From: Planctomycetota bacterium
GTDB taxonomy: Bacteria; Planctomycetota; UBA11346
DNA length: 64,000 nucleotides
Reading direction: 5' to 3'
NCBI GenBank assembly: GCA_031426335.1
Contig: JANPLC010000241.1
Coordinates: 1,828-65,827 of the forward strand
In this document: one piece after another, positions 11,754 to 35,427 of the stretch
Numbering within the stretch: position 1 is the stretch's first letter
How the letters are laid out: every line of letters starts with the position of its first letter
Position numbers and translations under genes: made by a program
The notes under the pieces: model-generated
Told to the model about the DNA's origin: nothing
Database searches by the model: none
The model's input: only the letters and a program-made list of their open reading frames with translations

Positions 11754-11769
11754 AAAGTTACCCCGCCTG
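11754..11769. repeat. Left copy of a 16-bp direct repeat AAAGTTACCCCGCCTG (candidate att core)
   Basis: Identical 16-mer at 35369-35384. This copy forms the acceptor 3' strand and part of the T-stem of the tRNA-like sequence. Confidence 0.65.
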
Positions 11770-11812
11770 GATTCGAACCAGGAATGAGAGAGCCAAAATC
11801 TCAGTCCGGGGT
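11757..11812 (-). other. tRNA-like sequence lacking a D-arm (Gln-UUG-like anticodon arm, T-arm, 7-bp acceptor helix); not a canonical tRNA gene
   Basis: Minus-strand read: TACCCCG-GAC-TGAGA-TTTTGGC-TCTCT-CATT-CCTGG-TTCGAAT-CCAGG-CGGGGTA-A. It has a perfect T-arm with a GGTTCGAATCC box and a perfect 7-bp acceptor pairing, but only 3 nt where the D-arm should be. Confidence 0.5.
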
Positions 11813-11891
11813 ATTCTAGGGAAGTCGAGCTGTGCGTTTTACTGTGTTTTTACGTATTTCCAATTTCTAGGAATTGCTGGGAAGTCACCCC

Positions 11892-11913
11892 GAGTTGATA
11901 TGGAGTTGATATG
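11892..11913 (+). repeat. Tandem 11-mer GAGTTGATATG x2 (candidate integrase arm-type sites)
   Basis: GAGTTGATATG GAGTTGATATG followed by GGG. Lies between the att core and the integrase start. The same motif pair occurs at 35299-35320. Confidence 0.55.
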
Positions 11914-11970
11914 GGGGTAAAATCGCGGATCCTTCTCTCGTGCCAGTTTCGATCTGGCCAGGAGCGGTGA

Positions 11971-13308
11971 ATGGCACCTCACGACGGTATCTCGATCCAG
12001 GATCGCTGGCTGGACGCTCCGGCCACGAAGGCGGCGGGCAAAGAGCGACTGAAGCCGGTCAATAATCGCTGCGCCAAAGTCAGCCGCTATTTCGTGCGCG
12101 TGTGGGATCCCAATCTTCCAGCCAAGAACCCGGGTGGGAAAATTGGTGGCTACGCTTCAAAGTGCTTCCCGACCGTGACAGCGGGTCATGCCTGGGCTGA
12201 GCATCGTCGCGGCGAATTTCTCAAAGGCACGGCATCGGCACACACGACGACCATGACCGAACTGGGCACCGCTTTCATGACGAGCCTGCGCACGCGTATC
12301 GACGGGGCGGTCACGGAGCGACATCAAGCGCAGGTCCAGCAGGTGATTGATGGTTTGGTGTCGGCTGGAGCGCGCGACATCACCGATCCGTCGTTTCCGG
12401 ACCTCGTGCAACGCTGGCTGTCGGGCCTCCAAGCCCAACGTACTTGGGAAAAGCGCCCACGCCCGGCGTCGCCAGGATTGAAACGGAAGTTCTTGGTCAT
12501 CGCTCGTGCCGTCATGGCGTACGCCCAAGAGCGGCGATTGGTGGCCTATGATCCCCTCGCCGCGATCAGAACCGGTCGGGTCGAGCAGAAGCGCAAAGCC
12601 ATCTTTGCCATCAATGAACTTTCCGCCCTGGTCAGCGATTCAGCCCGCTGGAAGAATCGTGATAAGTGGTCAGAGGCGCGGCGCATGGTCGATGCCCACC
12701 ACGGCAATCAGAAGGAAGCCGCCAAGGCCCTGGGGATATCACCCTCAACCTTGCACTACCGCCTGAATACCCCGCAGGAAGCCGATCCCTGGTGGCTCGT
12801 CGCTGTCTTGCTGACCTACACCGGGTGCCGGATCTCCGAAGTGCTGGCGATGACACCGCGCATGGTGGATCGCCAGGCTGGAGTCCTGCTGCTGCCGGCC
12901 AGCGCAACCGGCAACAAGATGAAGCGCGACCGGCGCATCCGCTTGCAACCGGAATTGATGGCGATTCTGGCAGAAGTGCTTGATGCGGGTGCGCTCGGAA
13001 AGGACGAGCCACTGGTGGGAACCCACATGGTGAAATTCACCAGCGCGAACCTCGGCAACGGATTCAAAGACTATTGCCGCCGCTGCGGCATCGAACCTGG
13101 GCCGCGCGGTCCGCATGCGCTTCGCCACACCTTCTGCGCGCTGATGACCGCACTGGGCGTCTCACCTTTCCTGGTCATGGAATTGGCGGGGCATACGTCG
13201 GCTCAAGTTACCAGATCCTACAGCCAGTCAGCCGAAGAACTCATCGACGGTGTGGCCTGCTGGCCCAGACATGAGCCAGCACAGTTCTATCTTCGTCGAG
13301 CAAAATGA
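11971..13308 (+). CDS. int: Tyrosine recombinase / phage-type integrase
   Basis: 445 aa. Catalytic signature 'TGCRISEVLAM' (Arg), 'HALRHTFCALM' (His-x-x-Arg-His), 'LAGHTSAQVTRSY' (His...Tyr). Adjacent to the att repeat. Confidence 0.9.
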   Translation: MAPHDGISIQDRWLDAPATKAAGKERLKPVNNRCAKVSRYFVRVWDPNLPAKNPGGKIGGYASKCFPTVTAGHAWAEHRRGEFLKGTASAHTTTMTELGTAFMTSLRTRIDGAVTERHQAQVQQVIDGLVSAGARDITDPSFPDLVQRWLSGLQAQRTWEKRPRPASPGLKRKFLVIARAVMAYAQERRLVAYDPLAAIRTGRVEQKRKAIFAINELSALVSDSARWKNRDKWSEARRMVDAHHGNQKEAAKALGISPSTLHYRLNTPQEADPWWLVAVLLTYTGCRISEVLAMTPRMVDRQAGVLLLPASATGNKMKRDRRIRLQPELMAILAEVLDAGALGKDEPLVGTHMVKFTSANLGNGFKDYCRRCGIEPGPRGPHALRHTFCALMTALGVSPFLVMELAGHTSAQVTRSYSQSAEELIDGVACWPRHEPAQFYLRRAK

Positions 13309-13434
13309 ACGCACCACCAGGTGCAGGTGGTTGCTCATCACCGCAAAGCCGGCCACTTTGACCGCGAACAAGCCGGCCAGGGACCGCAACCGCTCATCAA
13401 CCTCGCTCGACGGTGATCGAACCGTCAACCGCAT
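13306..13434 (-). pseudogene. Remnant of an IS200/RAYT-type (Y1/HUH) transposase
   Basis: 'LAGLFAVKVAGFAVMSNHLHLVV' matches the conserved 'yvvMpNHvHLl' block of REP-associated tyrosine transposases. Only ~40 aa remain. The fragment abuts the integrase stop and lacks N- and C-terminal parts. Confidence 0.45.
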
Positions 13435-13435
13435 A

Positions 13436-13526
13436 GGTAGTGTCCGTCAAGTTTCGCAAATTCGATCAGCGGCGTAGCCGGTCAGTGGTTAAGTGATCGA
13501 ATTTGCGAAACTTGACGGACACTACC
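13436..13526. repeat. Perfect inverted repeat (33-bp arms, 25-nt spacer); REPIN-like hairpin
   Basis: GGTAGTGTCCGTCAAGTTTCGCAAATTCGATCA (13436-13468) is the exact reverse complement of 13494-13526. It sits next to the RAYT remnant and at the left edge of the lower-GC cassette. Confidence 0.85.
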
Positions 13527-13586
13527 GGGGAATTAGTCTGAGCTAAGATCATCCATCTAATCGTAAAGTGCCAGTAAACCACGGGC

Positions 13587-13943
13587 ATGCATGTGCATAA
13601 AGAAGAATCCGTAGAGGACAACGAATATATTGTCTACGCTATTTTTCTTTGGCACGTTGCTGACCAAATCAAAAATGGAATGTCGGAAAATAATGCCATT
13701 GAGTATGTCTTGAAAACTGAGTATCCAGACATGGACGGCGCATTGATGAGTGTAGCGCTCGACCGTCATCGCCAAATAAAACATGCCCACCTTGGTGATC
13801 TTACAAGCAGCGTCGTTCTTCCCCTCTACCTCAGATACAAGGTTTCCGCGACTCAAGCAGATTGGTCGCATGGTAGCGACAATGCAAAAATAGCGTCAGA
13901 ACGCATCAAGGCAGAATTCGTACGGCAATTATCTATGCAATAA
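13587..13943 (+). CDS. Hypothetical protein (lower-GC cassette)
   Basis: 118-aa ORF with balanced composition. An overlapping minus-strand ORF (13557-13871) looks antisense-like. No recognisable motifs. Convergent with the immunity gene. Confidence 0.35.
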   Translation: MHVHKEESVEDNEYIVYAIFLWHVADQIKNGMSENNAIEYVLKTEYPDMDGALMSVALDRHRQIKHAHLGDLTSSVVLPLYLRYKVSATQADWSHGSDNAKIASERIKAEFVRQLSMQ

Positions 13944-13949
13944 TTCATC

Positions 13950-14480
13950 TCAAGCTTCCCATGGCAGAGGATAACCAAACGAAGCGATCTTCGGATCCTC
14001 ACGAAGAACATAGTCTTTATCCCCCGGCCATAGTGAATCATCATAATTCAAAGATCTCTCTAGTGCATTCTTAATAAATATGAACAGAGTCGAAGCCGCA
14101 ATATAGCATACGTTCGTTCGTCCTAGTATTCCTTCAACAAAGACGATTGGGGGATCCAATGGATTATCCCCCAATACAGCGACATAGTGATTTCCATGAC
14201 TATCACCAGCAATCGGCAAGAACGAAGCTGATCTGTATTCCGGAATCATACTTGCTATTTTTACGATCTCTTTGGCCCCCAAAAAATCACAGCCAATCAC
14301 TTCCGCTCCATCGACTTTCGTAAGCCATGACTGCAGATCAGCAGGGAACTCCATGCCGATTTCAATCGACGCTTCCTTAATTTCAATTGTCGATGCGCCG
14401 CGATATGCTATCGACCCACCAGAATACGTTCGGGATTTGGCTAGAATCTGGAGAAGAGTGTTTAAATTTGGCTTATTCAT
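13950..14480 (-). CDS. SMI1/KNR4 (SUKH-1)-type immunity protein
   Basis: 176 aa, starting 12 nt after the toxin stop with AGGA 4 nt upstream. 'IEIKEASIEIGMEFPADLQSWLTKVDGAEV' and 'FLPIAGDSHGNHYVAVLG...PPIVFVEG' fit the SUKH pattern (lP.dy..fl...nG ... ia.dg.Gn.y). Confidence 0.75.
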   Translation of the reverse strand: MNKPNLNTLLQILAKSRTYSGGSIAYRGASTIEIKEASIEIGMEFPADLQSWLTKVDGAEVIGCDFLGAKEIVKIASMIPEYRSASFLPIAGDSHGNHYVAVLGDNPLDPPIVFVEGILGRTNVCYIAASTLFIFIKNALERSLNYDDSLWPGDKDYVLREDPKIASFGYPLPWEA

Positions 14481-14492
14481 GATCCTGGCTTT

Positions 14493-17400
14493 CTATGGGA
14501 ACGCAATGAATGTCGCGGCATCTTGTGCAAATTGACCATCTATGAGCGCAGCTTGAGCCTCGACCTCAGCTTTAGTGACGTTACCGACTCCGCCTTTTAA
14601 ACGCAACCATTCCTCCCATGCTTTGGTTATCTTAGCATGGACCTCTATTTTTACAGTAAATACATTCTCAATGGCGTTCGGATTATCAGGGAACAAGTGA
14701 CTGAATTGCAACTCGATGCGATGATGAACTTCGTATCCGGCCTCTTTAAGCCCCTTTCCTCCCAGCAATTTAGTTCCCGCACGTTCTGCCCAAAGTCTTC
14801 TGGCTGCTTCGCGTACGGCATCTCGTTCGAGGGACGACAATTGGCGTCTATTTAGCTGCGCCTTCATGACGCTTACTTGCCACTTCGGAAGTTTAGTAAA
14901 CGTCTGAAAAAAACGCGTTTCTCCCATTCTACCTAAGACAGCCAAGGCTCTTCCCCATGCCTTATCGCAAAAACCACCAACGTTGTGAACCCAAATAGAT
15001 GGAGAATCTTCTTTTGAGTTCGAAGAGGCAACGAAATAGGTCTGCCAATCGGCCACGGAGAAATTGTACGTTGTGAAGCACTGCCCTATCGGGGCCTCTT
15101 CACAGCGCACCGATTCAACTACGGCACATTCATTGCCTGCCATATGCAACTGATAGCCGGGTTTCAATTCACCCATTGGAACCCAGGCACTAAGCTGCTT
15201 AACCCAGAAGGGGTGGGTGGTTGTTCCGACCAACTCAGACGCATCACCATCCATGTTCCCAACATCTAAACGATGATAACGAAGATGGATTAAAGTGGCT
15301 GGCGTGGTCATGAACGTCTGTTCAACGTGTTTGAGCCCTTCCGCACCACTTCGTTCATCACGCGACCAAACCATGTCGCCAACACGAATGTCCTCTATCG
15401 CTTTAAAACCGTTCGAAACTTTCACCCGCGTTCCCGCCACAAAGCAAATCAACTTTGTTGAAGCACGTACCAAAGTCTCCGTCGGGAGGAAGTCGCGCAC
15501 TGCTTGTCGTGCTTTTGGTAATGCTGACTCTTCAACCTTTTTAAATAAGACTTTACCTGATTTTCCGACGACACTTCCTACTTTCGCAAAGGGGACAAAG
15601 TTGACCAGTAAAAATCCACCGTTGACTCCCACCGCAGCCCAGGTGGCATCACCCTCGGGAAGCACAATCCTTTTTCCTCCACCAATGTAACCAGCCCAAG
15701 CGGTAACATCGGCCAATTGATTCATTGCTGACAAAACTTGGTTGGCGCCGTTCATCGCCGTTTGCTCATTTATCGGACGTAACTCCCATCCTATTTCCCT
15801 GGCAATTTTCATCCGCTCCTCTCGGCGAGCTTCGGCAGCAGCATGTATGTTGCCATTCGCCTTATTATAGGCATCAATTGCTGCGGGGAGATCGAAGGTT
15901 CCTTCTTTTTCGTACCTCAGGTCTCCAGCTTTCTTTCCAACAGGTATATCAGTATCACCAGATTTGTATGTGGCGTGCGGGGCAACCCACAAGTACACAG
16001 CTCGTGCCTCCGGAAGATCCCATGTGCGAATGGTCCCTCCGAATCCAACGTGAGCGATGAACGCATTTTGAACGATGCGCTCTACCCCAAGATCTACCCC
16101 TGGGATTACGACATCCTTCGTAAGCGCCGCTATGACGCTGCTGGCTAAACTCAGGGCATTGCCTTCAGGCGCACCCAACAGTTCTGGTATTGTCCACAGA
16201 GGAATGTCATCATCCAAGACGGGATTATCGAGCGCGTTCCAGACCCAACCGGTAGTTTCAGCGTTTTCACCTTGGACCAAGTACCAGGCCATGAGCTTGT
16301 TATCGAGGAATGTTTTGGGGTTGGTTCGAGCAAGTTTGACCTCTGCCGGCGTCAATGAGTCGCTCGTTACATTGCCCGCCACTTGTATTGCGCCCTGTCG
16401 CTTAAGGGTTACTTGGTAACTGCCCTGCACTGTTTTATCAAAGCCGCGTACTTCTTGCGTCGTCCAGGTATCCTCCTCATTAAGTCCAATGACGCTTGCA
16501 CTAATGCGCTGAGCGGCATCAGGAGACACAACTACAGTTACCGTATAAGTGTCGGGCACCGGAGTGGGAAGACGTGATCGCGCAATACCGATGGTAACCG
16601 AGAGATGAATAGTGTCATTGGTGCCTGAGAACGTAACCGGACCTTCGTCCTCACCTTCGCCGCCTTCGGTACCGACGGTTCCATTAACGGGTGCCCACGC
16701 TGGATCTACAAAAACCATTGCATTGCCTGTCGTTGCATCCTTCACGTAATAGCGGTCGTCCTTCTTGATAAGATCAACCCTGGAGCCGTTTTGGAACCAT
16801 TTGTGGCTCGTAATTACAGTGTCAATAATCGACGGCGCTTGTATCGATACTCGATAAGGCGTGACGGTTTCTTGCTGTGCTGGGGAGATAGCAGAAGAGA
16901 CAGACCGCAGGGAGAACGATGGCGCATCGGAAGTAATCGTAGTTGAGTATTGATATTGTGTCGAGGTCACTCCACCAATTTGAATGAAATTTGCAGTGAC
17001 CGCTTTTGATTCAGACATCTTCACCGAAGCTGGGATTGAAACACCCGTGGTAGCGCCAAGAAGATCCACTTGGATCACGGTTGAGCCAACTGTCGCGGTG
17101 AAAACCTTGGTGTCTGCACCTGTCTCGGTCAGTGCGATTGGTGTCGGACTCGGACCCGCGATGTGGTTAGGCAGTGTGATCGCGATCTGGTTAACGACTG
17201 TTGGTGAGAGCACGCCGCTAAGGTCGACTTTATAGGTCATCACTGTTGGAGCAGTAATTGCATTACTGCGAACTATAAGAGCCTCGAAACGGAGCGATGA
17301 AGGACCATTTTCCGTAAATACTTCTTCGCAATACCATTCACCATTCTTCTCGACTGTAGCCGATATGGTGTCAACGAGGATTGCGTTTGTTTGACCGCCT

Positions 17401-20400
17401 TCACTAATGGACACTCGATAAACTGCCCCGACATCCTGGAAGACATTAGAACCAACCGCTGTCTCGGTTAGCGTGACGGTTGCTGGATTCTGACCAATGT
17501 ACTGGTTAGGGATCACTAGCGTGATGGCATCCGTTTGCGTAGCCCGAAGATCGCCATTGAGTTGAATTGCGACCGTCTCTCGGATAACCGGGTTAGGATA
17601 CGTACCATTCATAGTCGCCGAGAAATTGGCACTTCCCTGAATGCCGCTTTCATTCGCATCAGTCACGACATTCATCAAGTGCTCGCCTTCCCAGGCAGGG
17701 ATCGTCACGGAACCGGAGAATGCAAAGCTCTTAGAATACGGCTTCCAGTCTGTTGGACTGCCGCTGACTGTGGATAATGCAATATCCCCCACCCACTTAT
17801 TGTGGTGATAAACATGGACCGACTTCATCGCTGGGGCTTCGAGCAAATTCGCAACCGCATCGGTAACGGTGCCAGATAGTGATACCGTGGCGTTTACACC
17901 GCTGACAGTGACGCTCGGCGATACCGAGATATTAGGCACTGACATAGTTTTGGTAATCTGAGGCGGGTTTTGATCTAACTCTGTCTCATAATTGATTTTC
18001 ACAATCGCCAGCGCCTCCTTCATCCGATGCGCGCCGTTGGCTCCGGCGAATTGTCTGCTTAATTCATCTGGATAGGCGTGCACGGCTCCAACTTTTACAT
18101 CAACGCTGTAAAGTCCCGCCGCGACGTCGGCGCCAATAAATACAGTGAATTCCAATACTTGGTAAGTTCTCATATTTGAATTTTGATCCTGCTCATCTCG
18201 GAGTCGCTGGCTCACAATGGTGACCTTATCGGAACCCGGCTTGACTCCAGGTGCCACAGAAATTGCTTGCGTAACATCCTTCTCTGAGCTTCCATTAATC
18301 TTGATGAACCGAATGTAATCTGCTGACATTCGATTAAAGTCATCAAATCCAAATTCTTTTGAGAGAAAATTCCCCCTAATGGTGAAGGCGGCCGTCATTC
18401 CTGATGCCGCTATATTTGGCGAAAGATTTATAAAGTTGAATACTGGCATGGATTGCCCTACCGAGAATCCAAGAAATGTATCCGTATCCGTCCCATACTG
18501 ATAGGGGCCAAGGCCAACAGTTGCGTAGTCGTTGCCTACTCGCCAGATCTCATAATCGTTGATGTACGATCCAATCGGAGCCAGATCGACTGATGCCGAT
18601 AACGCATCTCCATTACGGGTGACGGGGTGATTTGCGTTTCTTCCGCGATCGACGCGAAGCACTGGGAGCGCGCTCGGATCTCGCACCTGTGAAAGAGACG
18701 GGAAATTAAACTGAATTTCCTGTCGCTTCATGCCTTTTTTAAATGCCGGCTCGTAATTTAATACTGCGGGGCGATAATATCTGTCTGTTCCTGACCCCGG
18801 AGAATAGGGATAATTTTGAATGACCCCGCCATACAACATCGATGCGACATCGATCCCATTTCCCGCAAATGTGACTTGGGTTTTGAACGCCTTTGCGACG
18901 CCCAATAATGGATCGAAGGTCGCAGGATTGACCGTAATTGACGTAACTTGATGGCTATCATTATAGCCATAGTCATACCGTTGTCTTATGTCAAAAAATC
19001 CACCTGGCTCTGACAGGGAGAAAGTTTGAATGACTGACGTTCCTGTCAGCGAATTATACCCGGCCTGTTTAAATGTTGTCGTTCCATGTGCTCCCGAAGC
19101 GGGGTCCGTAAAGGTCGGCAGTCGGCTAAAATTTCCATAGCCAACATAATCTTGGGGCTGAAGGCCACGGAATTCATACTTTTTCTTGACGATATTTCCA
19201 ATCCAGTCCCTAAAGTAATAGGTATCTGTTTTGGCAATCTGATCTTTCTCCGCACCTGTGATATTAACAGGATTGTTCAACGTGAAGGACTGGCCCATTT
19301 GACCACTCGTAGGTTTACTCGGGACGCCTTGCCATGCCTCTTCTGGGTACCAGCCCATAGATAGATCGCTGGGCCAAGAGAGCCAATAGACGGGCGAGGT
19401 GTAACTATAGACGGACTCTGTTGCTGCTTCGACCGATGGATCCACCAACATCGCATCGACATAAAATAAATCCTTTACCTTCTCTGGTGGTACGGGATAA
19501 GGCTGATATGTATCCTCGAGGTAATTACCACATCTATCACTTATATTAACTGCATAGAAGGAGGTGTAACTCCTTGTGTTTAGCGAAAATGGCGTGTGAA
19601 ATCCGTTCAGCTTCCACCCAATAAATTCTCCTCCTTCGTCTACAATATTACTTTTTAGCAGAGGCGCATTATTCTTGTCAAAGACTTTGAACGACGATGA
19701 ATTTTTCAGTCCAGTTACTTCATCTGGCGCCTTGATGGTGACTGAAAAGTCCTGGGCATTGAAGCAAAGTCTTTGCCTATACTTGCGGAGATTCCCGTTC
19801 CCGGTGAACCCGAGTTCTGGGTTGGAATTGAGGAAGATGAATTTTTCTCGCTGATATGCGGATGTTTTTAAAGGTCCGTTCGAAATAACCAATGGCTCAG
19901 TGGGGCTGTCCCACAATGATTTGTCGGCGAGTATTTCGAGCTTAGGCGGCGAGCGATCTACCACGAGTCTTTCTGATAAACGGATAGTTTGCATTGCATT
20001 TTCTTGCGCTCTGGAGGCGTTGGCATATGCGACAAACTCAAAAATCCCTTCGCTAGCGAACTTGAATGACGCCGTTCCGCTAGATCCCGGTATTCTATAT
20101 TCCTGGCCATCCGATGAGCTTACGATTATTTCGGATACGACTCCTCCTCCATAAGATTGAGCTGAAGCGGTGATGAGCACCGGGGTCGAAGGATTTCCGC
20201 CTGTGTTCGTAAAGGAGAAGTTTTCGCCTTTGATTTCACCGTGCTTGTCACCAGTCAAAGAACTGTCTAAGTAGGCAATTGATAGAACTGGCGGCGCCAG
20301 AGGCGTGCCATCTGGGCTCCCCTGTTCTGTCGTTTCCGATCCGGTCGGCCAACGAAGAACAGCGATTTTCTTTGGCCCTAACACTCCGCGGGCATCCTGA

Positions 20401-23400
20401 TATTGCAGAATAATGGAGGCGGTGGTCGTACCGGCTGCTGCCAATGAAGCCCTAATGGCAAACCCGCCGTTGGTTAACGTAGACACCAGAATCAACCCAG
20501 GAGTTGTGGTAGTCGCGAGAACAGCTGTGATATCATGACCATAGGGTACGATCCCTGAAGCCTCTACGACTAACCCTTTTCCATACTGATAGGTAACTGC
20601 GGCAGCGGGCAATTCGTCGCTGTATAGTGTGATTGCGGCGACGGCGCCATCGCTGCCTAGATTAAAATTGCTGCTAGTGCCAAGAGTGACGTCAATCGAT
20701 TCGGCGGTCTCAATTTCACCATCATCGCGCGGCGTGATCGTGATTAGCGAACTGGTTTGGTTAGCCAGGATGGTGACCAATCCGGTAAGGCTGAGGTAGT
20801 CGATGCCGGGTGTGGCCGAACCTCCGACGGTATACGGCACGGTTAGTGTCGTAGTCGAGGGGGCCGACCGCGTCACGGTGAACGTGGCAGTGGTCAGTCC
20901 GGCCTCTGTTGCGACGTTGTCGGTGGCAGAGATACGCACCGTTGGCCGTTCATCGTCACCGATCGTTACGGTTGCACTGCTGTCGATTCCAGGTGTGAAT
21001 GCGCCGGTGACGAGCGTGACGATCACGGTCTTGTCGCCGTTGGCCGTGGCATTATTTACCGGGGTGATGACAAGGTCGGCCGTAACCTCGTTGGCCGCGA
21101 AGGTGATGGCACTGACGTTGGGGTTGAGGGTGTAGTCGGTGCCTAGCGTGGTGCTGGCGGTACCAGTGCGCAGGAAGGGGACGCTCAGCGTCGTGGTGGT
21201 ATCGCCCGTGCGCGTGAATCGAACCGTCCCGGTGACGGGCGTCGCGCCTTCGGCCGCATTCGGCTGGAGCGCCACCACGGTCACCGTGGGGAGGTCATTG
21301 TCAGCGATAGTCACCGTGGCGTTGGTGGTGGCACCAAGGCTGTAGCCGGCTCCTGCCACCAGGGTAACCTTCACGGTTTCGTTGACCTCGGGTAGATCGT
21401 CGTCCGTCGGCGAGATGTAGAGGTCTTTGGTGGTCACGTTGGGGCCCAGCACGATCGGCCCGGTCAGCGTGCTGTAATCGCTACCCGCGGTTGCCGTACT
21501 GCCCGTCGTGGAGATGCCGATCGAGATCGTGGTCGTGGGGTCGCCGGTACGCTGCAGGGTCAGCACACCCAGCGCGCCGCCTTCGACTGCTTGGGCAGCG
21601 GTGGCGGCGATGCTGACAACTGGCGGCTCATTGTCGCTGATGCTAATCTGGGCTTGGGCTTGACCCACCCGGTAGGTCGCCTGCGGCACCAGGGTGAGAA
21701 TCACGGTTTCCGCGACTTCCGCGCCGGAGTCGTTGACCGGCGTAATGTTGATGGGGGCCGATTCCTGTCCGGCGAGAATCGTTACCGTGATGGTGCCAGT
21801 ACCGGTGATGCTGGTTGGCGTGGCCGTGTAATCCGTCAGCGCGGTGGCCGTGCCGGCGCGGGTCAGTGTAACCGTCAACGGATTGGCCGTCGAGCCGCTG
21901 CGCGTCAGCATAAACGTACCCGTATCCGGGCCGGTTTCGCTGACCGCAGCATCGGACACTGCCAAGTCGACGATCGGGAAGTCGTCGTCATGCAGGATAA
22001 TCGCAACGCTGCTGGTGATGATGCCATAGGAGCTGGGTCCAATGGTGGCGGTGATGGTTTCGTCACCTTCCACCGTCGTGTCGTCACGGTTGGTGGTGAT
22101 CGACACGGGTGGCGCTGAGGCATTGCCGGTAGGAATAGTCAATGTGCCCGAGGGAACCGAACTGCTGTAATCCACGTCTAATGTGGCCCCCGACAGGGCG
22201 AACGCGACATTCAGCGCGGGCCCGCTAAAATCACCCGTCCTGGTAACGGTCAGCGTTACTTGCTCATTTGCATTTTCCGTGACCTCGGTGCGGGAAGCCG
22301 TGATCGTCAACGTCGCATCTTCGATCGACGTGCTGGCCGACCAGGAACCGCTGATCGCAAACGGCACCGTGGTGGACGCCTGCAGCAGGAGGATTGCGGT
22401 CTCCGTGCCTTCCACCAACGCGTCCGCCTTCGCCGCTACCGAGATGTCGACGAACGTTGCGTTGGCCGGGATGGTCGCCGTGGTAATCACTGCGGGGGTA
22501 GCGGTGAAATCTGTATTTAGCACCGCATTGCCGCTCCATTGAACTGGAATGGCGAGCGCGCTCGTCGACGTATTGTTTCGGGAAATGCGGATTTTGCCCT
22601 GATTGGCGGTGTTGGGCTCCTTCACCTCGGCGTCGGTGGCTGCGATGGTAAGGGTGCAATCCTTGATGGTGGCGGTCGCGCTGGGCGTGGCACCAATGTT
22701 GTAGGTTGGCACGCCGATCAGGGTCAGCACCACCGTTTCGTCCGCTTCGGTGATCTGGTCACCCAGTGCGGTGAGCGTCACCGTGGTGGAGGTGGCATTC
22801 GCAGCGATGGTCGCGGTGCCGGACAGGGCGGTGTAGTCGAGGCCAGGGGTCGCGGTGCCGCTGACCTGGTACGTGACCGTCAGGGCTGCGGTGGTCGCGG
22901 CTGGGCGGGTAATGGTGAAGGTGGCGTTGTCACCACCGGGTTCGACCGCCGTCGCGTCCGTGGCGCTGATCGTCAGGGTTAGAACTTCGTCATCCGTAAT
23001 GGTGACCGTGGCACTGGCGGCGGCTCCAATGGTGTAGGTCGCCGTTGGTGTGGTCGGGATGATGGTGGCGATGACCGTTTCCGGGCCTTCAACGAGTGCG
23101 TCCTGCACCGGGGTGATGGTCAGGGTAGCCGTCGCCACGCCGGCATTGAAGGTGACCGTGGTTCCGGTGGGGTTTCGCGTGTAGTCACCGCCGGCCGTGG
23201 CGGTGCCGGTGATCGCGACGGAGACGGTCAAGGCATTGGTGGTGCTGACACGCGTCAGCGTGAATACGCCATTGGTGGGTGTGGCCGCTTCGGTCGCGTT
23301 GGGCGTGGTGGCGGCAATGGTGACCACATCATCATCACGAATGGTCAGAGTGGCGACGCTGGGGGTGCCGACGGTGTATCCGGTACCGGCAATCACGGTC

Positions 23401-28805: not shown

Positions 28806-28887
28806 GATAAGCGTTTCCTTCGAATAACAGGCAAGAAACATCGCATTGCCAAGTGACAACGGTCAAGTTGCCACCCAACTGATCACC

Positions 28888-30090
28888 TCACCACATTACG
28901 ACAACCAGACCTGGACGCCCTGGCCCGTCGGGGTTCCCCCCAGAACCATATCCCGCACCTGGTGATCCAAACATGTAGCCTGCACCAGCAGTTCCCGGGG
29001 CATAACCATAAAAGTTCCCATTGAGCGATACCGGCTGGCTATTCGTCCCTTTAGCCCCTTGGATTGCTAGGCCAGTTGCACCATTGAGTACCGCAGCCCC
29101 CCCATTGAGATATGTCGCCCCACTACAAATAATGAGGGATCCAAAGCTTGTTTGACTACCAGCTAAACCACCAATCCCCCCTCCAGTACCAACTGTGATC
29201 GCATAGCTTCCTTGAGGGCTAGAAACGACAGCCCAAGCAAATCCACCGGCATTTCCTGGTTCAGCAAGTGTGGCATAACTTCCATCCTGGTTAGAACTCG
29301 TCTGACTGGGAACCCCGCCAGAACCACCCCCCAAAGCAATCACTTGAATTTGTGTGACACCAGCAGGAACGGTAAAGGTACCGCTGGAGGTAAAGAATTG
29401 GACGCCCTTCGAAGAAACCATCAGGGGCAATTGTGATGCCAAGACTTTCCCACTCGCATCGAGCGTGGCCAAGCCGTTCGCAGCCCCTTTCTCATCGCCC
29501 CGCACCGCCTGCGCGCCAGTTGCTGGCGCAGTGCGATTGATCACCACGTCGCCTGCTGTAACCGTTCCAGCAACATTTATCGGCGTGCTAAAGCTAGTGT
29601 TTGTCTTGGTCACGCGGACAGCACGAACGACGCCATCTGGGTATAGATCAATGCCGCCATTGGTCTGGCGGTTGACGATTTCAATCGGGACGTCCGAACT
29701 CGGACGCATATTCAGCTGGCTGGCACCTGCCCAGATAAAGCCCCCGCCAATGACAACTTGTCCTGCCGTTACCGTAGTGGGCGGGGATTTGGTGACGACT
29801 AATTGGCGCCCACCCACTTCGTCGTAGACCGAAAAGGTTTTCCCAGCTTGACGCCACTGGATAAACGGACCTAGAGCATCTGCTGCCCAGGTTCCCTGCA
29901 TCAGTCCGTTCAGGTAGGAATCAAATGCAAGACCAGTAGCAACCCGTCCGCCTCCAATGCGAACCTGCGTCGACGTCGGTGCGACCGGAACTGCACCGGC
30001 CACAATGACCGCACCAGCGGGATCAACAGTCAGCACATCCTCTGCCTGGAGTGCTCCGATGGCCAAGAGGCTAATTAAGATTCGTTTCAT
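28888..30090 (-). CDS. Secreted phage-tail-fibre-like protein with C-terminal glycine-rich domain
   Basis: Start at the internal ATG 30090 ('MKRILISLLAIGALQA' signal peptide). 'NGLATLDASGKVLASQLP' is a tail-fibre hallmark. 'FFTSSGTFTVPAGVTQIQVIALGGGSGG...ITVGTGGG' is the glycine-rich domain seen in phage fibres. Confidence 0.7.
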   Translation of the reverse strand: MKRILISLLAIGALQAEDVLTVDPAGAVIVAGAVPVAPTSTQVRIGGGRVATGLAFDSYLNGLMQGTWAADALGPFIQWRQAGKTFSVYDEVGGRQLVVTKSPPTTVTAGQVVIGGGFIWAGASQLNMRPSSDVPIEIVNRQTNGGIDLYPDGVVRAVRVTKTNTSFSTPINVAGTVTAGDVVINRTAPATGAQAVRGDEKGAANGLATLDASGKVLASQLPLMVSSKGVQFFTSSGTFTVPAGVTQIQVIALGGGSGGVPSQTSSNQDGSYATLAEPGNAGGFAWAVVSSPQGSYAITVGTGGGIGGLAGSQTSFGSLIICSGATYLNGGAAVLNGATGLAIQGAKGTNSQPVSLNGNFYGYAPGTAGAGYMFGSPGAGYGSGGNPDGPGRPGLVVVMW

Positions 30091-30148
30091 GGTTATCCCT
30101 GAAAATGATGTGTATCGCTCTGACACTTAGAAAAAATGAGTTAATGAT

Positions 30149-31150
30149 TCAAAACCCCATAACTGCCACGGTGACTATCGAGGCATTGGTCGCTGCCAGA
30201 GGACCATTGATGCAAACAAAGGAAACGCTCGTTGTCGTCAATGCTCCGACTTGATTGAAATAGGCCGTCATCGCTTCTGGCCCACACGTAATAATTGGGA
30301 CATAGGAAACCGAAGCGAACGGCGTTGTGAAGTTTACTCGGTACTGACCAGTGGCGAGGCGATCCACCGAGGACACATTATAAGCACCACGAACCGTAAG
30401 TGCCGCGGCCTTCCCATCAAAATTAACCCACGCCTTTATGCTGCCCGCGTTGATACGTGGGTCATCACCCCGAACAACTTCGGTCGCAGCCGCTGGGGTA
30501 GCACGACTAATCACGGCGTTATTCGAAGAAACCGTACCTGCAAATAAATCTCCCCCAGTTCTAATCACGCCACCGCCAATTGCGGTCTCGTCCACCTTCA
30601 CCTGTGCTGCTTGTGGCTGGGGGCCGTAAAACGTGGTGTAGCCGTCCGGGGTAATCTCCATCCGCGTGATCGCATTCGCCGTCGGTGCGGGCGAGGTCGT
30701 TGGCGTTGTGGAGAATTTCAATCCGGCTCGTTGACCCGCGCCGCCTGGCAACCATCCGCTGATTATGTAGAGATTGGGGTCTGCCTCACTGTAGCGTCCA
30801 CCACGAAGGCCACCGCTGTTCAAATCGCCAATGGAGAGGAGGCCTGACGTCATCACGCCTCCTCCTCCTATTGCGGTCCCTGTGGTCCCAGTGGGCAGCG
30901 TCGTGGTAGGCATCGGTCCGTAAAAAATGGATGGGGTTGAATCCCCGGCGATTCCAACCAGGAGGCGCTGAGCAAAGGCGGCTCCGCCGCCAGAAATCCG
31001 CGATTCCGTTGATGTATTGACGCCACCAAGCGTTCCGCCCGCTGTTACTAGGCTACCGGCTACCTGGACGGTGCCACTTGGGTCAACCGTCAAGGCATCG
31101 GCAGAATGGAGAGCGCCTATTGCCAGCAGGCTTAAAATAATTTTTTTCAT
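30149..31150 (-). CDS. Secreted phage-tail-fibre-like protein (paralogous N-terminus to 28888-30090)
   Basis: Signal peptide 'MKKIILSLLAIGALHS'. Shares 'LTVDPSGTVQVAG' with its neighbour. C-terminus 'VVRGDDPRI...IKAWVNFDG...LTVRGAYNVSSVDRLATGQYRVNFTTPFASVSY' matches a common tail-fibre C-terminal module. Confidence 0.7.
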   Translation of the reverse strand: MKKIILSLLAIGALHSADALTVDPSGTVQVAGSLVTAGGTLGGVNTSTESRISGGGAAFAQRLLVGIAGDSTPSIFYGPMPTTTLPTGTTGTAIGGGGVMTSGLLSIGDLNSGGLRGGRYSEADPNLYIISGWLPGGAGQRAGLKFSTTPTTSPAPTANAITRMEITPDGYTTFYGPQPQAAQVKVDETAIGGGVIRTGGDLFAGTVSSNNAVISRATPAAATEVVRGDDPRINAGSIKAWVNFDGKAAALTVRGAYNVSSVDRLATGQYRVNFTTPFASVSYVPIITCGPEAMTAYFNQVGALTTTSVSFVCINGPLAATNASIVTVAVMGF

Positions 31151-31210
31151 GCGGTTTTCTTGAAAAGAGGCCGGCGCTCTGCGCCTAACCGGCTACTTCG
31201 CCTCGTTGAT

Positions 31211-31939: not shown

Positions 31940-32184
31940 TAGCGTCGGTAATTAGCTGCCGAATGCGTTGGCTGCGGAAACAGGCGACCAACTGTTTCTC
32001 TGGCGAAATATCGCACCCAGCTTGCATTGTCGTGAAATTCGAGCCTCAGTTCGCTCATTTCGATCAGCACCACGAGTGTCAGGACGTCACCTGAAGATAT
32101 GGAGTATACGAGGCACGGTTTTTCCGTGGAAGATTTGTCGCGGTGACTGAGCGGCGGATTGTTCATCGCTTGAAGGCGATCCAT
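31936..32184 (-). CDS. Hypothetical small protein
   Basis: Internal ATG at 32184 ('MDRLQAMNNPPLSHRDK...VLTLVVLIEMSELRLEFHD...'). Its stop overlaps the next start (ATGA at 31936-31939). The longer N-terminal extension in the ORF track runs through the G-tract region and is discounted. Confidence 0.3.
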   Translation of the reverse strand: MDRLQAMNNPPLSHRDKSSTEKPCLVYSISSGDVLTLVVLIEMSELRLEFHDNASWVRYFARETVGRLFPQPTHSAANYRRY

Positions 32185-32212
32185 GGACTCTTCGCAGACT
32201 AATCGCTGTTCT

Positions 32213-32342
32213 GCCCCTCGGCCCTTCCCCTGGCCCATTCCCAGAGGCTTCCCCGGTGGCAGCCCCTGGGGCTGGCCTACGGGGTCCTCGGCGGGGCTCC
32301 GGGCGGGGACCCCGGCGGGGATGCCCACGGGGCTCTCTGGGG
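32213..32342 (+). other. C-tract / G-tract block with quadruplex potential
   Basis: Four CCCC runs (32213-32266) are followed by at least 7 GGGG runs within ~80 bp (32267-32342). Includes GGCGGGG x3 at ~12-bp spacing and the palindrome CAGCCCCTGGGGCTG (32260-32274). Confidence 0.5.
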
Positions 32343-32387
32343 ATTTACGGGCTTTTCTTGCCAAAACCCTCTCATGGCGTTTTGCCG

Positions 32388-32586
32388 GGAACACGCGGAA
32401 CACTAGGAACACGGTGACGGGCTTCAGAGACTCACACCTACCAGTCGGATGTCAGCGCTCTGGTCTGCGCCCGCGTGACCTCTGATCGATGCTCGCTAGG
32501 CACTTACTCGACCGTTCACTAAACACTGACGATAAGCACACAAACACCGGCTGGTCCCTCATTGTTCTCAGTGTTCCTGGTGTTCC
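32388..32586. promoter_or_regulatory. Iteron-like repeats (candidate replication origin/operator of the island)
   Basis: GGAACAC x3 at 9-bp period (32388-32394, 32397-32403, 32406-32412). Inverted GTGTTCC x2 at the same period (32571-32577, 32580-32586), plus a degenerate copy at 32562-32568. The ~150-bp spacer contains AAACAC variants. Lies immediately 3' of the primase gene. Confidence 0.4.
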
Positions 32587-33914
32587 GGGTGGTTGGTAGT
32601 CAGGGACGATTGGGGAAGAAGTGCTGCGCGGAAATACTCCGGCACGTCGTAGATCCACTCCAAGCGATCTGCCAAGCGCACCCGGCGACGATTGAAGGCG
32701 AGGGCCGTTAGTCGCTGGCCGAGGCGAGCCATCTCCAACGGACGCGCGCCGTTTGCTTGGCACCAGTACAGGAAGCGCAGGCGGGTGTGGCGGCAGAGTT
32801 CGCCGCAGGTGGCGTCGTAGGCGGGAATGTCCTCAGGATCGGTGCCAGGCGGCGACCAGCAGAGGCGCTGCCAGCGTTCGTCCTCCAGCCAACCGGTGAC
32901 GGCGTCGCGGGCGATCAGGGCGAGTTGGCGCTGGCGCAGTTCTGGTAATACGGCGTGGATCGGCGGGGCGTCGTGTTCGTTCACGGCGCGCCACAGCAAA
33001 TCGATATTGATGGCATTGATGGCGGACCAATCCACCGCGCCGCTGGGATTCACGTCCAATTGATGGAAACGACGCGCACCGGTAGTGTCATTGACCAGGA
33101 GCGACACCGGTTCGTTGGCCGTGCCGGCGAAGGTCATCAAGCGCCGTGCTGTGATGCGGCCGTTCTCGCGCATGCGGCGGTAGCTGACGGCCGGTTGGGT
33201 GATGACGCGCTTGATGTCGGCGGCCTCGGTGGTGCTGACGCGGGCCATTTCATCAAGGATGCCAATGGCGTGCGTGGCCATGACCTGCGCTTCGCGTTCA
33301 TCGCTGAACGTGCGCGCGCTAACGTCGATCACCAGTTCGCCGAGTGGTTCGACCAACCGGCGCAGCGCCGTGCTTTTGCCGGTGCCCTGGACGTGGCCGT
33401 AGATCACCAGCATCAGTTCATCGTGAGTTGGCAGACCAGCGAGACGGCGTTTCACCTGCCAGAGCCAATGACATACCACGGTGGTATCCACTGAATCGGT
33501 GCGGCCGGTGATGGCGGCACACCAGGCGGCGACTTCGTCGGCCCCGCGTTGATCCACCGGCTGATCAAGCAGACGGCCGGTGATGGCAGCGTAGCGTTCG
33601 CGTGCGTCCTGACGCGCGAGTTCCTCGAAGATCGCTTGGAGCGTGGCTTCGCTGGCGCGCACGCCCTGGGAACGCAAGGCGAACCACAGTGAACGCGCCA
33701 ATGCCCCATGGGCTGCGTCGGCACCGGCGATGTCGCCGAGCGCGCCATCAGCCGCCAAGCGATACGTCCCGGTGGCGTCGACCGCCAAGCCGCGCGAGTG
33801 ACGATGACGGCGGCATGCTTCGACCATTTTAGCGAAGGTGAAACCGTCGGTCAGCGGCGGCGCGGACTTTGCTGGTGATGATGTCGGCGTTGGATCAGTG
33901 AGGAGGCGAGGCAT
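32568..33914 (-). CDS. VapE / P4-type primase-helicase family NTPase
   Basis: Start at the internal ATG 33914 ('MPRLLTDPTP'). Walker A 'GHVQGTGKSTALRRL', Walker B-like 'AIGILDEM', and 'LMTFAGTANE...TGARRFHQLDV', typical of virulence-associated protein E / D5-like helicases. Confidence 0.8.
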   Translation of the reverse strand: MPRLLTDPTPTSSPAKSAPPLTDGFTFAKMVEACRRHRHSRGLAVDATGTYRLAADGALGDIAGADAAHGALARSLWFALRSQGVRASEATLQAIFEELARQDARERYAAITGRLLDQPVDQRGADEVAAWCAAITGRTDSVDTTVVCHWLWQVKRRLAGLPTHDELMLVIYGHVQGTGKSTALRRLVEPLGELVIDVSARTFSDEREAQVMATHAIGILDEMARVSTTEAADIKRVITQPAVSYRRMRENGRITARRLMTFAGTANEPVSLLVNDTTGARRFHQLDVNPSGAVDWSAINAINIDLLWRAVNEHDAPPIHAVLPELRQRQLALIARDAVTGWLEDERWQRLCWSPPGTDPEDIPAYDATCGELCRHTRLRFLYWCQANGARPLEMARLGQRLTALAFNRRRVRLADRLEWIYDVPEYFRAALLPQSSLTTNHPEHQEH

Positions 33915-33918
33915 GGGT

Positions 33919-34185
33919 TCACCGCAGGTGGGGATGAGGAAAAAGTTCTTCAACCAAGGCGCCGTGCACAGGATGGCGGCGACGAACCACGGCTGGCCAA
34001 GGTTCGCCATCGCAATCCACCAGCACGCGTTCGCCGGGCAGCAGGGTCGCGCCGGTGGCGAACTCCGCTAACCGCTGAACGTTGCCAGCGGTCAGCACGG
34101 TCACGCGTTCATCACTGGCGATGACCGCCACGCGAGGAGCGGGCTCGCCAGGAAAGCGCAGTGATGATGCTGGGGAATGGGGCAT
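33919..34185 (-). CDS. Hypothetical protein
   Basis: 88-aa ORF in the operon between the HTH genes and the primase. It ends 4 nt before the primase start. No motifs recognised. Confidence 0.45.
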   Translation of the reverse strand: MPHSPASSLRFPGEPAPRVAVIASDERVTVLTAGNVQRLAEFATGATLLPGERVLVDCDGEPWPAVVRRRHPVHGALVEELFPHPHLR

Positions 34186-34268
34186 GGATGCGCGTGGTGC
34201 AGGTCGTGCGTATTCAAGAGGTGAAGAAAACCCGGCGAGATGTGCGCCGGGCCTTCGACTTGGAAATT

Positions 34269-34412
34269 TCAGACGGTGACGAGGTCCTCGTCTTCATCGT
34301 CATTCGTGTCGTTCTGTTCTTCGGCGTCGTCATCATCCACCTCGGGGTCGTCGTGATAAACACGGCGCGTGATGGTTTCCTCGATCAGCCGGCGTTTGGG
34401 GTTGGGGATCAT
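34269..34412 (-). CDS. Small, highly acidic protein
   Basis: Internal ATG at 34412 overlaps the upstream stop (ATGA). 'MIPNPKRRLIEETITRRVYHDDPEVDDDDAEEQNDTNDDEDEDLVTV'. Confidence 0.35.
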   Translation of the reverse strand: MIPNPKRRLIEETITRRVYHDDPEVDDDDAEEQNDTNDDEDEDLVTV

Positions 34413-34762
34413 GATGCCTCCGTGCCCGTGGTGGGCGGTGGTGGGGTGATGTCGAGTGAGCTGCGATGGTTGCGGTCGGGATCCCAGCGCGCGGCATCGG
34501 CGGCGCGGATGAACCAACCGAGCTTGCCGCCTTTGGTGTTGCGGCGGATCGCCGGCAAGTGCCCTTGGGACAACGCATGCAGCACGCGCGACAGGCGACA
34601 GCGCTTGAGGGTGCGCACTTCTGACGGCGTCATAAGTCGTTCGGCATCCGCCTGAGCGCTGGTCAGCAATCCTGGCAGTCGAAGGACGAGTTTCGCCAGC
34701 AAGGCATCGGCCACCTGCTCGGCGAAGGCGTGATCATCAGTGACGACCTGAACACGGCTCAT
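34409..34762 (-). CDS. Excisionase-family HTH (HTH_17-like) DNA-binding protein
   Basis: Start ATG 34762 is coupled to the upstream stop. 'LMTPSEVRTLKRCRLSRVLHALSQGHLPAIRRNTKGGKLGWFIRAADAARW' resembles MerR-superfamily excisionase/AlpA HTH. Confidence 0.55.
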   Translation of the reverse strand: MSRVQVVTDDHAFAEQVADALLAKLVLRLPGLLTSAQADAERLMTPSEVRTLKRCRLSRVLHALSQGHLPAIRRNTKGGKLGWFIRAADAARWDPDRNHRSSLDITPPPPTTGTEAS

Positions 34763-34965
34763 GGCAGCGCTCCAACCACCACCTGGTTCGTTAGTCGCGT
34801 GATTTCGGTCGCAGGAATCAACCACGGCTGACGCCCAGGGCCGGTGCCGCGGATTGCACCGCGCACGAAGCCACGGCGACACCAGCGATGGATAGTGGAG
34901 AGATGACGACCCGCCGCGCGCGCAAGCGTGGTCGCTGGTTGGTAGGAATCGTTCGTCGTCGACAT
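34759..34965 (-). CDS. AlpA/excisionase-like HTH regulator
   Basis: 'YQPATTLARAAGRHLSTIHRWCRRGFVRGAIR...WLIPATEITRL' fits the AlpA/Xis pattern (helix-turn-helix plus wing). First gene of the island's leftward operon. Confidence 0.65.
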   Translation of the reverse strand: MSTTNDSYQPATTLARAAGRHLSTIHRWCRRGFVRGAIRGTGPGRQPWLIPATEITRLTNQVVVGALP

Positions 34966-35298
34966 CGGCCACCTCTCGCGCACGTTGCGCTCGTGGTGCC
35001 GGTCTACTGCGCCATCAATTCATTGTCATTAGTGATGACGAATGTGGTAAAAATGTAGGCGCAATGTTTGCTCGCCCCATCAGCTCAGGCAGAGTTCTGA
35101 CGCGCTGAGATCGCGGGAAGCGCATGGGAGTTGGCAGACGACCATGGTGAATTGATGGTTTGCGCGCGTGAATGGCTGCCACGTCCCGAGGTTACGATTC
35201 CCCGGAAAATGCCGGGCGTTTCTCTGATTCCGGTCATGCAGACCCGAGCCTGATAAGGTGAGAGGCCGTGACCGAGATCACGATCCGCAATCTGGTCC

Positions 35299-35320
35299 GA
35301 GTTGATACAAAGTTGATATA
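35299..35320 (+). repeat. Tandem 11-mer GAGTTGATACA AAGTTGATATA (candidate integrase arm-type sites)
   Basis: Same RAGTTGATAYR motif, orientation and trailing GGG as 11892-11913. Lies 48 bp inside the right att repeat. Confidence 0.55.
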
Positions 35321-35368
35321 GGGCGAATATTCGGCCCCGAGTCAAAGCCGTAAGTGTCTGCTATTTAA

Positions 35369-35384
35369 AAAGTTACCCCGCCTG
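35369..35384. repeat. Right copy of the 16-bp direct repeat AAAGTTACCCCGCCTG (candidate att core, junction between island and prophage)
   Basis: Identical to 11754-11769. On its right, 43 bp separate it from the stop of the prophage distal tail gene. Confidence 0.65.
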
Positions 35385-35427
35385 CATGGTGTACGAACCT
35401 TGACGGTCCGGCTTCCACGGCGGCCGG

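Follow-up and report, generated by a model that had tools for sequence, protein, structure and literature searches.

Which element brought 23.6 kb of foreign DNA into this genome, where did it insert, and why do its two ends have only 16 bp in common? The locus lies in a 64,000-nucleotide stretch of DNA from a Planctomycetota bacterium (contig JANPLC010000241.1), which we call the window and whose positions we use throughout. We find that the interval 11754-35384 is a 23.6-kb mobile island, with a tyrosine integrase gene (int) at one end and a VapE-like replication gene at the other, and that its terminal repeat comes from the 3' end of a tRNA-Gln gene. The account that we favor, and consider very probable, is that an island specific for tRNA-Gln(UUG), driven by a tyrosine integrase, inserted first and that a prophage then entered the regenerated tRNA gene, so that the two elements now form a tandem array.

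Island ends and the tRNA-Gln target

The features on which the delimitation of the island rests are these:

11754-11769, plus strand: left copy of the 16-mer, the reverse complement of the tRNA-Gln 3' end
35369-35384, plus strand: right copy of the 16-mer, at the junction of P' arm and prophage and the sole tRNA-Gln remnant at the right end
11892-11902 and 11903-11913, plus strand: tandem 11-mers of the P arm (GAGTTGATATG, twice), presumed arm-type binding sites of the integrase (Int)
35299-35309 and 35310-35320, plus strand: tandem 11-mers of the P' arm (GAGTTGATACA and AAGTTGATATA), 48 nucleotides (nt) from the 16-mer
11754-11802, minus strand: displaced or duplicated 3' fragment of tRNA-Gln(UUG), about 49 nt, from anticodon stem to trailer
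11640-11662, minus strand: intrinsic terminator, a 9-bp stem followed by CTTTTCTTTT, about 95 nt downstream of the tRNA fragment

When up to two mismatches are allowed, the 16-mer AAAGTTACCCCGCCTG is present in the 64-kb window exactly twice, both times on the plus strand (shuffled sequences average 0.02 copies, with two or more in 0 of 100). The 11-mers, summarized as RAGTTGATAYR, number four in the whole window, all on the plus strand and grouped as two tandem pairs (shuffled mean 0.05, four or more in 0 of 100), and their 8-mer core AGTTGATA has a single extra copy, at 55685 on the minus strand. An earlier note on this DNA lists both motifs with exact coordinates and sequences, and the exact count that the note proposed, run on the window, finds no further copies. 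By arithmetic, about 0.5 repeats of some 16-mer are expected in 64 kb, hence a repeat of this length is not rare by itself; what excludes chance is where the 16-mer lies, at the 3' terminus of a tRNA fragment next to an integrase gene, along with the pairing of the 11-mers and the comparison with relatives.

The 16-mer itself reads as tRNA: T-stem CAGG, acceptor strand CGGGGTA, discriminator A and trailer CTTT, so that tRNA-Gln contributes its final 12 nt and the trailer the other 4. Extending the left copy along the minus strand into GAGATTTTGGCTCTCTCATTCCTGGTTCGAATCCAGGCGGGGTAACTTT yields the T arm, the acceptor 3' strand and the anticodon arm with anticodon UUG. At this int-proximal junction (P-O-B'), the identity block of the island therefore spans nt 27-72 of tRNA-Gln and the CTTT trailer, about 50 nt in all, and a related locus, L034, has a complete tRNA-Gln gene whose 3' part matches the 49-nt fragment at 96% identity. 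Neither ARAGORN nor Rfam at its gathering thresholds reports a tRNA anywhere in the window; a scan of Rfam by E-value does match 11758-11813 on the minus strand (26.9 bits versus a gathering score of 29, E=0.0011) with the D arm deleted. The P arm has, just 5' of the fragment, a heptamer (TACCCCG) that is perfectly complementary to the acceptor 3' strand, so that the whole stretch folds on the Rfam model as a tRNA without a D arm. The counterpart of this heptamer is TACCCGC in the relative L009, nothing alike is seen in L006 and L003, and the match may be a relic, may have arisen by chance or may act as a functional mimic. The terminator at 11640-11662 lies on the strand of the fragment and downstream of it, and is for this reason probably the native tRNA-Gln terminator in the chromosomal B' flank; the genes further out on this side are chromosomal, encoding an ECF sigma factor, a FecR/3-keto-disaccharide hydrolase and carbohydrate-active proteins.

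Does the family to which the island belongs in fact use an intact tRNA-Gln gene? L034, a locus from the same metagenome as L009 whose VapE homologue is 90% identical to that of the island, supplies the arrangement. A complete tRNA-Gln(ttg) gene (2287-2358) is followed there by ACTTT, a 48-nt spacer and TATATCAACTT TGTATCAACTC, the exact reverse complement of the P' 11-mers of the window at an equal 48-nt distance, and then by homologues of the island genes p74, p187, p88 and VapE, in that order. L034 is colinear with window positions 35387->32563 at 79% DNA identity; the homology stops at the VapE stop codon and the iterons and, at the right end, puts the island limit at about 35385-35387. Upstream of the L034 tRNA lie NDK and a tRNA-Ala gene, with no phage. 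This arrangement shows that the island family integrates into tRNA-Gln and leaves the regenerated gene at the P' end, that the native repeat is about 50 nt long and of the type termed anticodon-centred by Islander (PMC4383910), and that the right boundary of the island is correct.

The integrase end has relatives of its own. Int homologues are 89% identical in L009, 81% in L006-L008 and 66% in L003, and L009, L006 and L003 have a common layout: a 3' fragment of tRNA-Gln starting at GAGA in the anticodon stem, about 120 nt, a pair of 11-mers, about 57 nt and the ATG. The 11-nt spacing of the tandem 11-mers is kept in L009 and L006. In the three closest elements the 11-mer is GAGTTGATATG, and in L003, where Int has diverged to 66%, it is TGTTGCAATGA/G; such a change along with Int is the behavior expected of arm-type sites that track their integrase. 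L006 carries a compensatory change in the T stem (CATGG/CCATG), and a more distant Int homologue (51%, L010) is found next to the 3' part of another tRNA. The outer flanks of all these Int relatives are unlike each other. Homology between L009 and the window begins exactly at 11754 and stops at 13299, the end of int, and the single other contig bearing this Int shows the same left junction.

Both limits of the island are thus backed by relatives, L009 for the left and L034 for the right, and the earlier claim of a discrete integrative element with ends at 11754 and 35384 stands. So does the claim that joining the ends rebuilds an attP with the order P' arm sites, core, P arm sites, int, because the same P' arm follows an intact tRNA-Gln in L034 and the same P arm, with the tRNA fragment, precedes int in L009, L006 and L003. 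The 16-bp repeat that the earlier note took for the native core is real, but it is only the last 16 nt of the identity block of about 50 nt. Protein scans with Int recovered only L003 from genome_contigs, nothing from viral_contigs and one relative of 32% identity from metagenome_contigs. In viral_contigs, a scan with the tRNA 3' end gave no match, and one with the tandem 11-mers gave 20 matches that proved unrelated and were set aside as chance. What emerges is a precisely delimited and comparatively validated integrative replicon in a Planctomycetota-like genome; to our knowledge, few mobile elements have been mapped in Planctomycetota.

The neighboring prophage and the order of insertion

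Another puzzle is the right end, where a full tRNA gene would be expected from L034 and 16 nt are found. The right flank is a prophage, not chromosome:

35428-58311, minus strand: late operon of a siphovirus-type prophage, outside the island, by Pfam and PHROG matches
35385-35399, minus strand: phage-derived half-site GGTTCGTACACCATG, adjoining the core; the left half-site only

Between a J-like tail protein (35428-38253) and the large terminase (56167-58311), the operon encodes tailspike, tape measure, major head protein, protease and portal; beyond the terminase come an HNH endonuclease and a C5 methylase, and the prophage continues past the end of the window. An IMG/VR contig, L004, encodes a J protein that is 90% identical and is colinear with window positions 48295->35368 at 75-89% DNA identity. 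The homology ends exactly at 35368, one base beyond the 16-mer, and different DNA follows the core. Within the tailspike gene (39039-41087), about 1.4 kb is unrelated between the two phages (39045-40507 versus L004 7760-9210), with 87-89% identity on both sides, which looks like a swap of the receptor-binding module.

L004 also reveals what the phage may use for integration. At 12826-12876 lies an attP-like palindrome of 51 bp whose sequence mimics the 3' end of tRNA-Gln. It reads GGTTCGTAC GCCGTG CAGACGGGGTAACTTTT CTGACGAGTA GTACGAACC, and a 9-bp perfect inverted repeat with 33 nt between its halves is centred on the core; GTACGAACC has no second copy in the window. An adjacent open reading frame (ORF) at 12735-13904 on the minus strand has Recombinase and Zn_ribbon_recom domains above cut-offs, and its frame runs through the att core. 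The distance from GGTTCG to CAGG is 15 nt in the phage and 10 nt in the tRNA, a 5-nt offset, and in serine integrases the motif for the zinc-ribbon domain is shifted by 5 bp between attP and attB (Rutherford et al., PMC3783163). Given this offset, the inverted repeat and the recombinase ORF, we infer by analogy that the phage uses a large serine recombinase whose attB would be the part of tRNA-Gln from T loop to trailer. The site resembles those of the A118/LI integrases (PMC3783163) in its imperfect palindrome of about 51 bp, its 9-bp distal motifs, the adjacent Recombinase/Zn-ribbon ORF and a distal motif that lies 5 bp closer to the center in the presumed attB, the tRNA, than in attP; it departs from that model in its tRNA-gene target, in the 16-17 nt of identity between attP and attB, and in the N-terminal truncation of the L004 recombinase. 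The phage recombinase is not in the window, and a scan of viral_contigs for the phage attP pattern returned only the contig of L004 itself.

Could island and prophage be one and the same element? A single composite prophage, with int at 11971 and the entire interval as parts of the phage that encodes tail and head and with the internal 16-mer and the P' 11-mers as relics, would account for the contiguity of the interval with the late operon, for the common strand of most genes, for the lack of a second integrase in the window and for the weak matches of two cargo proteins, p333 and p412, to tail-fibre PHROGs. Yet the island backbone occurs without phage beside an intact tRNA-Gln in L034, the phage occurs without the island and with other DNA after the core in L004, and the signal peptides of p333, p412 and the giant cargo protein are atypical for virion proteins. 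Moreover, island and prophage have no DNA in common. Taken together, the composite is largely refuted, L034 and L004 excluding it for practical purposes, and we give it next to no weight; the island and the phage are shown to be mutually independent.

A tandem array of two independent elements could have arisen as follows. The attP of the island would comprise the P' arm with its two 11-mers, 48 nt, the copy of the tRNA 3' part of about 50 nt, about 90 nt, the P arm overlapping the int promoter, and int. Strand exchange would most likely occur in the anticodon loop, regenerating the tRNA at the P'/VapE end and leaving the 3' fragment at the int end, which is the arrangement seen in L034 and L009. 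Later, the unrelated siphovirus-type prophage, with an attP mimicking the last 16-17 nt of tRNA-Gln, would have entered near the junction of T stem and acceptor and displaced nt 1 to about 56 of the tRNA to the opposite prophage end, outside the window. What remains as the 16-bp repeat would then be the overlap of the tRNA mimics of two elements, the outer repeat of the island having been trimmed by the phage. This scheme predicts that the distal prophage end reads as the 5' part of tRNA-Gln joined to CAGGCGGGGTAACTTT, with the GTACGAACC half-site about 10 nt later; that a phage-free site would read tRNA-Gln, ACTTT, TTAAATAGC; and that an island-free site would read GGTTCGTACACCATG, core, GTAATCGC. 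Both tandem arrays at tRNA genes (tDNAs) and crossover subsites of A, T and J type are established (PMC4383910).

How firm is the order of events? Given a crossover in the anticodon loop, island first and phage second is the sole order that gives B', the 49-nt fragment and int at one end and P', the 16-mer and J at the other. Had the phage come first, the island would have entered the distal phage junction with Int acting inside the 16-mer, at the T-stem/acceptor subsite, and the repeat would be a functional core from which the island is excisable. Both junction sequences are equally compatible with that order, and among mapped islands J-type sites are nearly as frequent as anticodon-type sites (1836 versus 2083; PMC4383910). 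It is nevertheless improbable, as four relatives, whose Int is as little as 66% identical, all carry a tRNA copy that begins at the anticodon stem (GAGA...) and not in the T arm, matching the anticodon-centred attP of Islander; as the arm pairs in the circular form would lie about 100 and 107 nt from the anticodon loop versus 67 and 141 nt from the 16-mer; and as L034 shows the family integrating into an intact tRNA.

Several points count against the reconstruction with the island first, or against labels that it employs. The crossover position is read solely from where the identity block begins. Comparison with related genomes, which the earlier note had suggested, confirmed the limits of the island but gave no true empty site: orthologues of the flanking sigma factor (64-68% identity) have other upstream neighbors and no tRNA. 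The circular junction was not found, and the tRNA-Gln remnant and phage recombinase predicted for the far prophage end are not in the window. The serine-recombinase ORF of L004 lacks the N-terminal catalytic domain, and the integration enzyme of the phage is thus not established. The AlpA/Xis label for the small genes next to the P' arm derives from a sub-threshold HTH_17 match (21 bits versus a cut-off of 27), and the C-terminal domain of the putative toxin in the cargo has no Pfam match at E<=1 and no PDB sequence match, with a pLDDT of 44.5 in a single-sequence AlphaFold model.

If the island did enter first, can it still leave? Excision through the 16-mer while the prophage sits there is doubtful, since the likely crossover site of the island, the anticodon loop, is missing from the right end. 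We speculate that excision of the island may need prior excision of the prophage, which would restore tRNA-Gln beside the P' arm; this purely topological coupling is an idea that we consider unlikely. If true, it would make a replicative island mobile only after induction of its neighbor, a satellite-like timing achieved without a dedicated sensing or hijacking gene. Two unrelated elements here use different sublocations of one tRNA gene, and the usual island marker, a full tRNA with a long fragment, is gone while a 16-bp repeat is left, which serves as a warning for automated island finders.

Backbone genes and relation to tRNA islands and satellites

What does the island consist of, once its cargo is set aside? 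Its conserved backbone comprises the att site and int (11754-13308) and the segment from the P' arm to the iterons (32385-35384), and is an integration and replication module:

11971-13308, plus strand: tyrosine integrase, 445 amino acids (aa) (Pfam Phage_integrase 4.4e-16, PHROG integrase 7.3e-32)
32385-32591, no strand assigned: iteron array, presumed origin of replication, directly 3' of the VapE gene
32568-33914, minus strand: VapE-like/DUF5906 helicase-type replication protein (profile match 9.3e-20)
33919-34185, minus strand: p88, conserved small backbone protein, immediately upstream of VapE
about 34409-34762, minus strand: conserved C-terminal part of p187, second small regulatory or excision-type gene, by conservation in relatives
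34759-34983, minus strand: p74, small regulatory or excision-type gene with a weak HTH_17 match

The integrase keeps its catalytic residues (R287, K316, H382, R385, H408 and Y417), which are conserved or invariant, and has an insert of Fis-type helix-turn-helix (HTH) character at aa ~236-270 (Pfam HTH_8, 2.6e-08) between the core-binding region and the catalytic domain. This insert is present in Int homologues down to 51% identity and absent from a 31% homologue (P0006), and may be a built-in accessory DNA-binding module. A sigma-70-like promoter upstream of int (11895-11923) has its -35 element, TTGATA, within the first P-arm 11-mer, and from this overlap we infer that binding of Int to the P-arm 11-mers could regulate int. 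Directly after int, a 33-bp perfect inverted repeat with a 25-nt loop (13436-13468/13494-13526) marks the place where the homology of relatives ends and the low-GC cargo starts, and where an independent Logan contig (L001) breaks.

At the other end, the VapE gene likely starts at the ATG at 33914, although its longest reading frame extends to 34010. GGAACAC occurs three times next to it with 9-nt spacing (32388-32412), and inverted copies lie at 32563-32589. Relatives also have iterons 3' of VapE, each with a sequence of its own in the two more distant elements: CCCATGAC seven times in L006 (6330-6700) and ATAGGTG six times in L035 (11350-11870), where VapE is 58% identical in both cases, and GGAACAC six times in L034 (5130-5400). 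That the iteron sequence changes with VapE supports an origin with a cognate initiator, and fits an initiator and origin that co-evolve, as judged from sequence comparison, in a family of small planctomycete-type integrative replicons. The most compact member is the element of about 4 kb at L035 7516-11389, with tRNA-Pro, an integrase (419 aa), an HTH gene, a p88-like gene and VapE but without cargo; a search of this 21-kb locus for a direct repeat of the 3' end of tRNA-Pro gave none. Look-ups of the exact proteins J and VapE, the latter with two alternative starts, found nothing on record.

These genes bear out the earlier description of the backbone in part. The tyrosine integrase at one end and the iterons at the other are confirmed; of two proposed AlpA/Xis-like HTH genes, one has the weak HTH_17 match but the second is only a conserved small gene; and the proposed VapE primase-helicase retains its VapE/DUF5906 helicase-type domain, but no primase domain is detected in its N-terminal 155 aa. 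The resemblance to the backbone of P4-like or PICI-like satellites, which the note had recognized in these genes, likewise survives, but neither Pfam, PHROGs nor PADLOC finds a capsid, packaging or helper-interference gene. Island ORFs with Pfam or PHROG matches are int, VapE, an HTH gene, SUKH, the toxin gene and two genes for glycine-rich/tail-fibre-like proteins; none matches the psu-delta-sid operon, an Epsilon/Ash anti-repressor, or terS/ppi/cpm. By the criteria of SatelliteFinder, int, AlpA and primase alone make up an ambiguous 'Type C' set (PMC10085698).

Could the island be a true phage satellite all the same, with the adjacent prophage as its helper, mobilized in the capsids of that phage after induction? 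Int, HTH genes, a VapE-type replicase and iterons do resemble P4 and PICI modules (PMC10085698), and the island adjoins a prophage that uses the same tRNA gene. Against this stand the lack of any Sid, Psu, Delta, Ash, TerS, Ppi, Cpm or capsid homologue in the Pfam, PHROG and PADLOC searches, the lack of a stretch in common with the phage that would be fit for cos or pac, the recovery of L034 and L009 without phage at the locus in the DNA obtained, and a size of 23.6 kb, more than twice the 10-kb median of P4-like elements. We regard a helper relationship, and with it helper-dependent transfer of the island, as unlikely, and class the element among genomic islands that target tRNA genes, here with a replication module, rather than as P4-like or PICI. 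In terms of the satellite survey (PMC10085698), what it has in common with P4-like elements and PICIs is an integrase, small candidate AlpA/HTH-type genes, a helicase-type replication protein with adjacent iterons, and arm sites overlapping the int promoter; it differs in having no psu-delta-sid, epsilon, terS/ppi/cpm or capsid genes, in its VapE-like protein with no detected primase domain, in its larger size and, since 93% of P4-like elements in that survey come from Enterobacteriaceae, in its host, a Planctomycetota-type genome.

The comparison with tRNA islands is closer. As Islander requires, the integrase is a tyrosine recombinase and not of Xer or integron type, a fragment of the target tDNA lies at one end in the right orientation, and relatives occupy other chromosomal contexts, with homology breaking exactly at 11754 and at about 35385; the intact regenerated tDNA expected at the other end is absent from the window, where 16 nt remain (35369-35384), and present in L034. 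Like A-class islands, the element combines a tyrosine integrase, an attP copy of the tRNA 3' part from the anticodon stem and a second element at the same tDNA; the displaced 3' fragment marks one end and, in L034, a regenerated tRNA the opposite one. Unlike them, it has its regenerated tRNA in the window split by the second element, ends with 16 rather than about 50 nt in common, int at the fragment end instead of beside the intact tRNA, and an integrase with the Fis-type HTH insert. The island is ordinary in kind and leaves current concepts unchanged; islands in tRNA genes, tandem arrays and mobile toxin loci are familiar from earlier work.

Cargo of the island

Between int and the iterons lie 19 kb that differ among L009, L034 and L006. 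Because its content varies among relatives, whose cargo consists of other surface or polysaccharide genes, we regard this interval as a cargo slot, and the locus shows a small chassis of Int, HTH genes, VapE and iterons with such a variable slot. Here the slot holds:

13950-14480, minus strand: SUKH-1 (SMI1/KNR4) immunity protein (Pfam SUKH 1.5e-07)
14493-28859, minus strand: giant polymorphic toxin of 4788 aa, a 14.4-kb gene, by its domain matches
28888-30126, minus strand: p412, secreted protein with a Gly_rich_2 domain, paralogue of p333
30149-31150, minus strand: p333, secreted protein, paralogue of p412

The giant protein begins with a signal peptide and continues with two DUF1349 domains, a PKD domain, twelve Calx-beta domains, a PT-HINT domain (aa 4479-4626, 1.3e-21) and a C-terminal domain of about 160 aa. 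A pre-toxin domain is thus followed by a C-terminal tail and, 13 nt downstream of the gene, by the SUKH-1 immunity gene, and the earlier view of the cargo as toxin genes rather than phage-interference or capsid-redirecting genes is confirmed by the pair of PT-HINT toxin and SUKH protein; PADLOC finds no defence genes on the island. Toxin activity of the giant protein is predicted from its domain order, and an EVHHRIE...N...N...H motif in the C-terminal domain, by reading of the sequence, hints at a His-Me nuclease.

GC content (guanine plus cytosine) falls to 46-52% over about 13300-20500, compared with 60-67% elsewhere; the SUKH immunity gene and the 3' ~40% of the toxin gene, which encodes the C-terminal part of the protein, both lie in this stretch. 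Such a drop fits cassette replacement, and as it extends far beyond the toxin tip, it suggests a recent large recombinational replacement. Like the polymorphic toxin systems described by Zhang et al. 2012 (PMC3482391), the locus combines an N-terminal signal, long repeats, PT-HINT, a short variable C-terminal domain and a SUKH gene directly downstream, and its GC drop, which takes in the immunity gene and the 3' end of the toxin gene, is what cassette replacement would produce; it is unlike them in its unmatched C-terminal domain and in being the cargo of a small integrative replicon.

The proteins encoded directly upstream of the toxin gene, p412 and p333, start with signal peptides that are nearly identical, MK(K/R)I(I)LSLLAIGAL...LTVDP(S/A)G(T/A)V, and have C-terminal parts that match tail-fibre and tail-fibre-assembly PHROGs (2.1e-11 and 1.2e-10). 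We considered and dropped a reading of these two as tail fibres and of the giant protein as a toxin carried on the virion, as all three have signal peptides and the PHROG matches cover only the glycine-rich C-termini. A stretch of the toxin gene (26680-26819) is 69% identical over 140 nt, in opposite orientation, to positions 5242-5381 in a chromosomal gene with CHB_HEX_C and PKD domains (4216-6234); the likeness is probably that of a common repeat domain.

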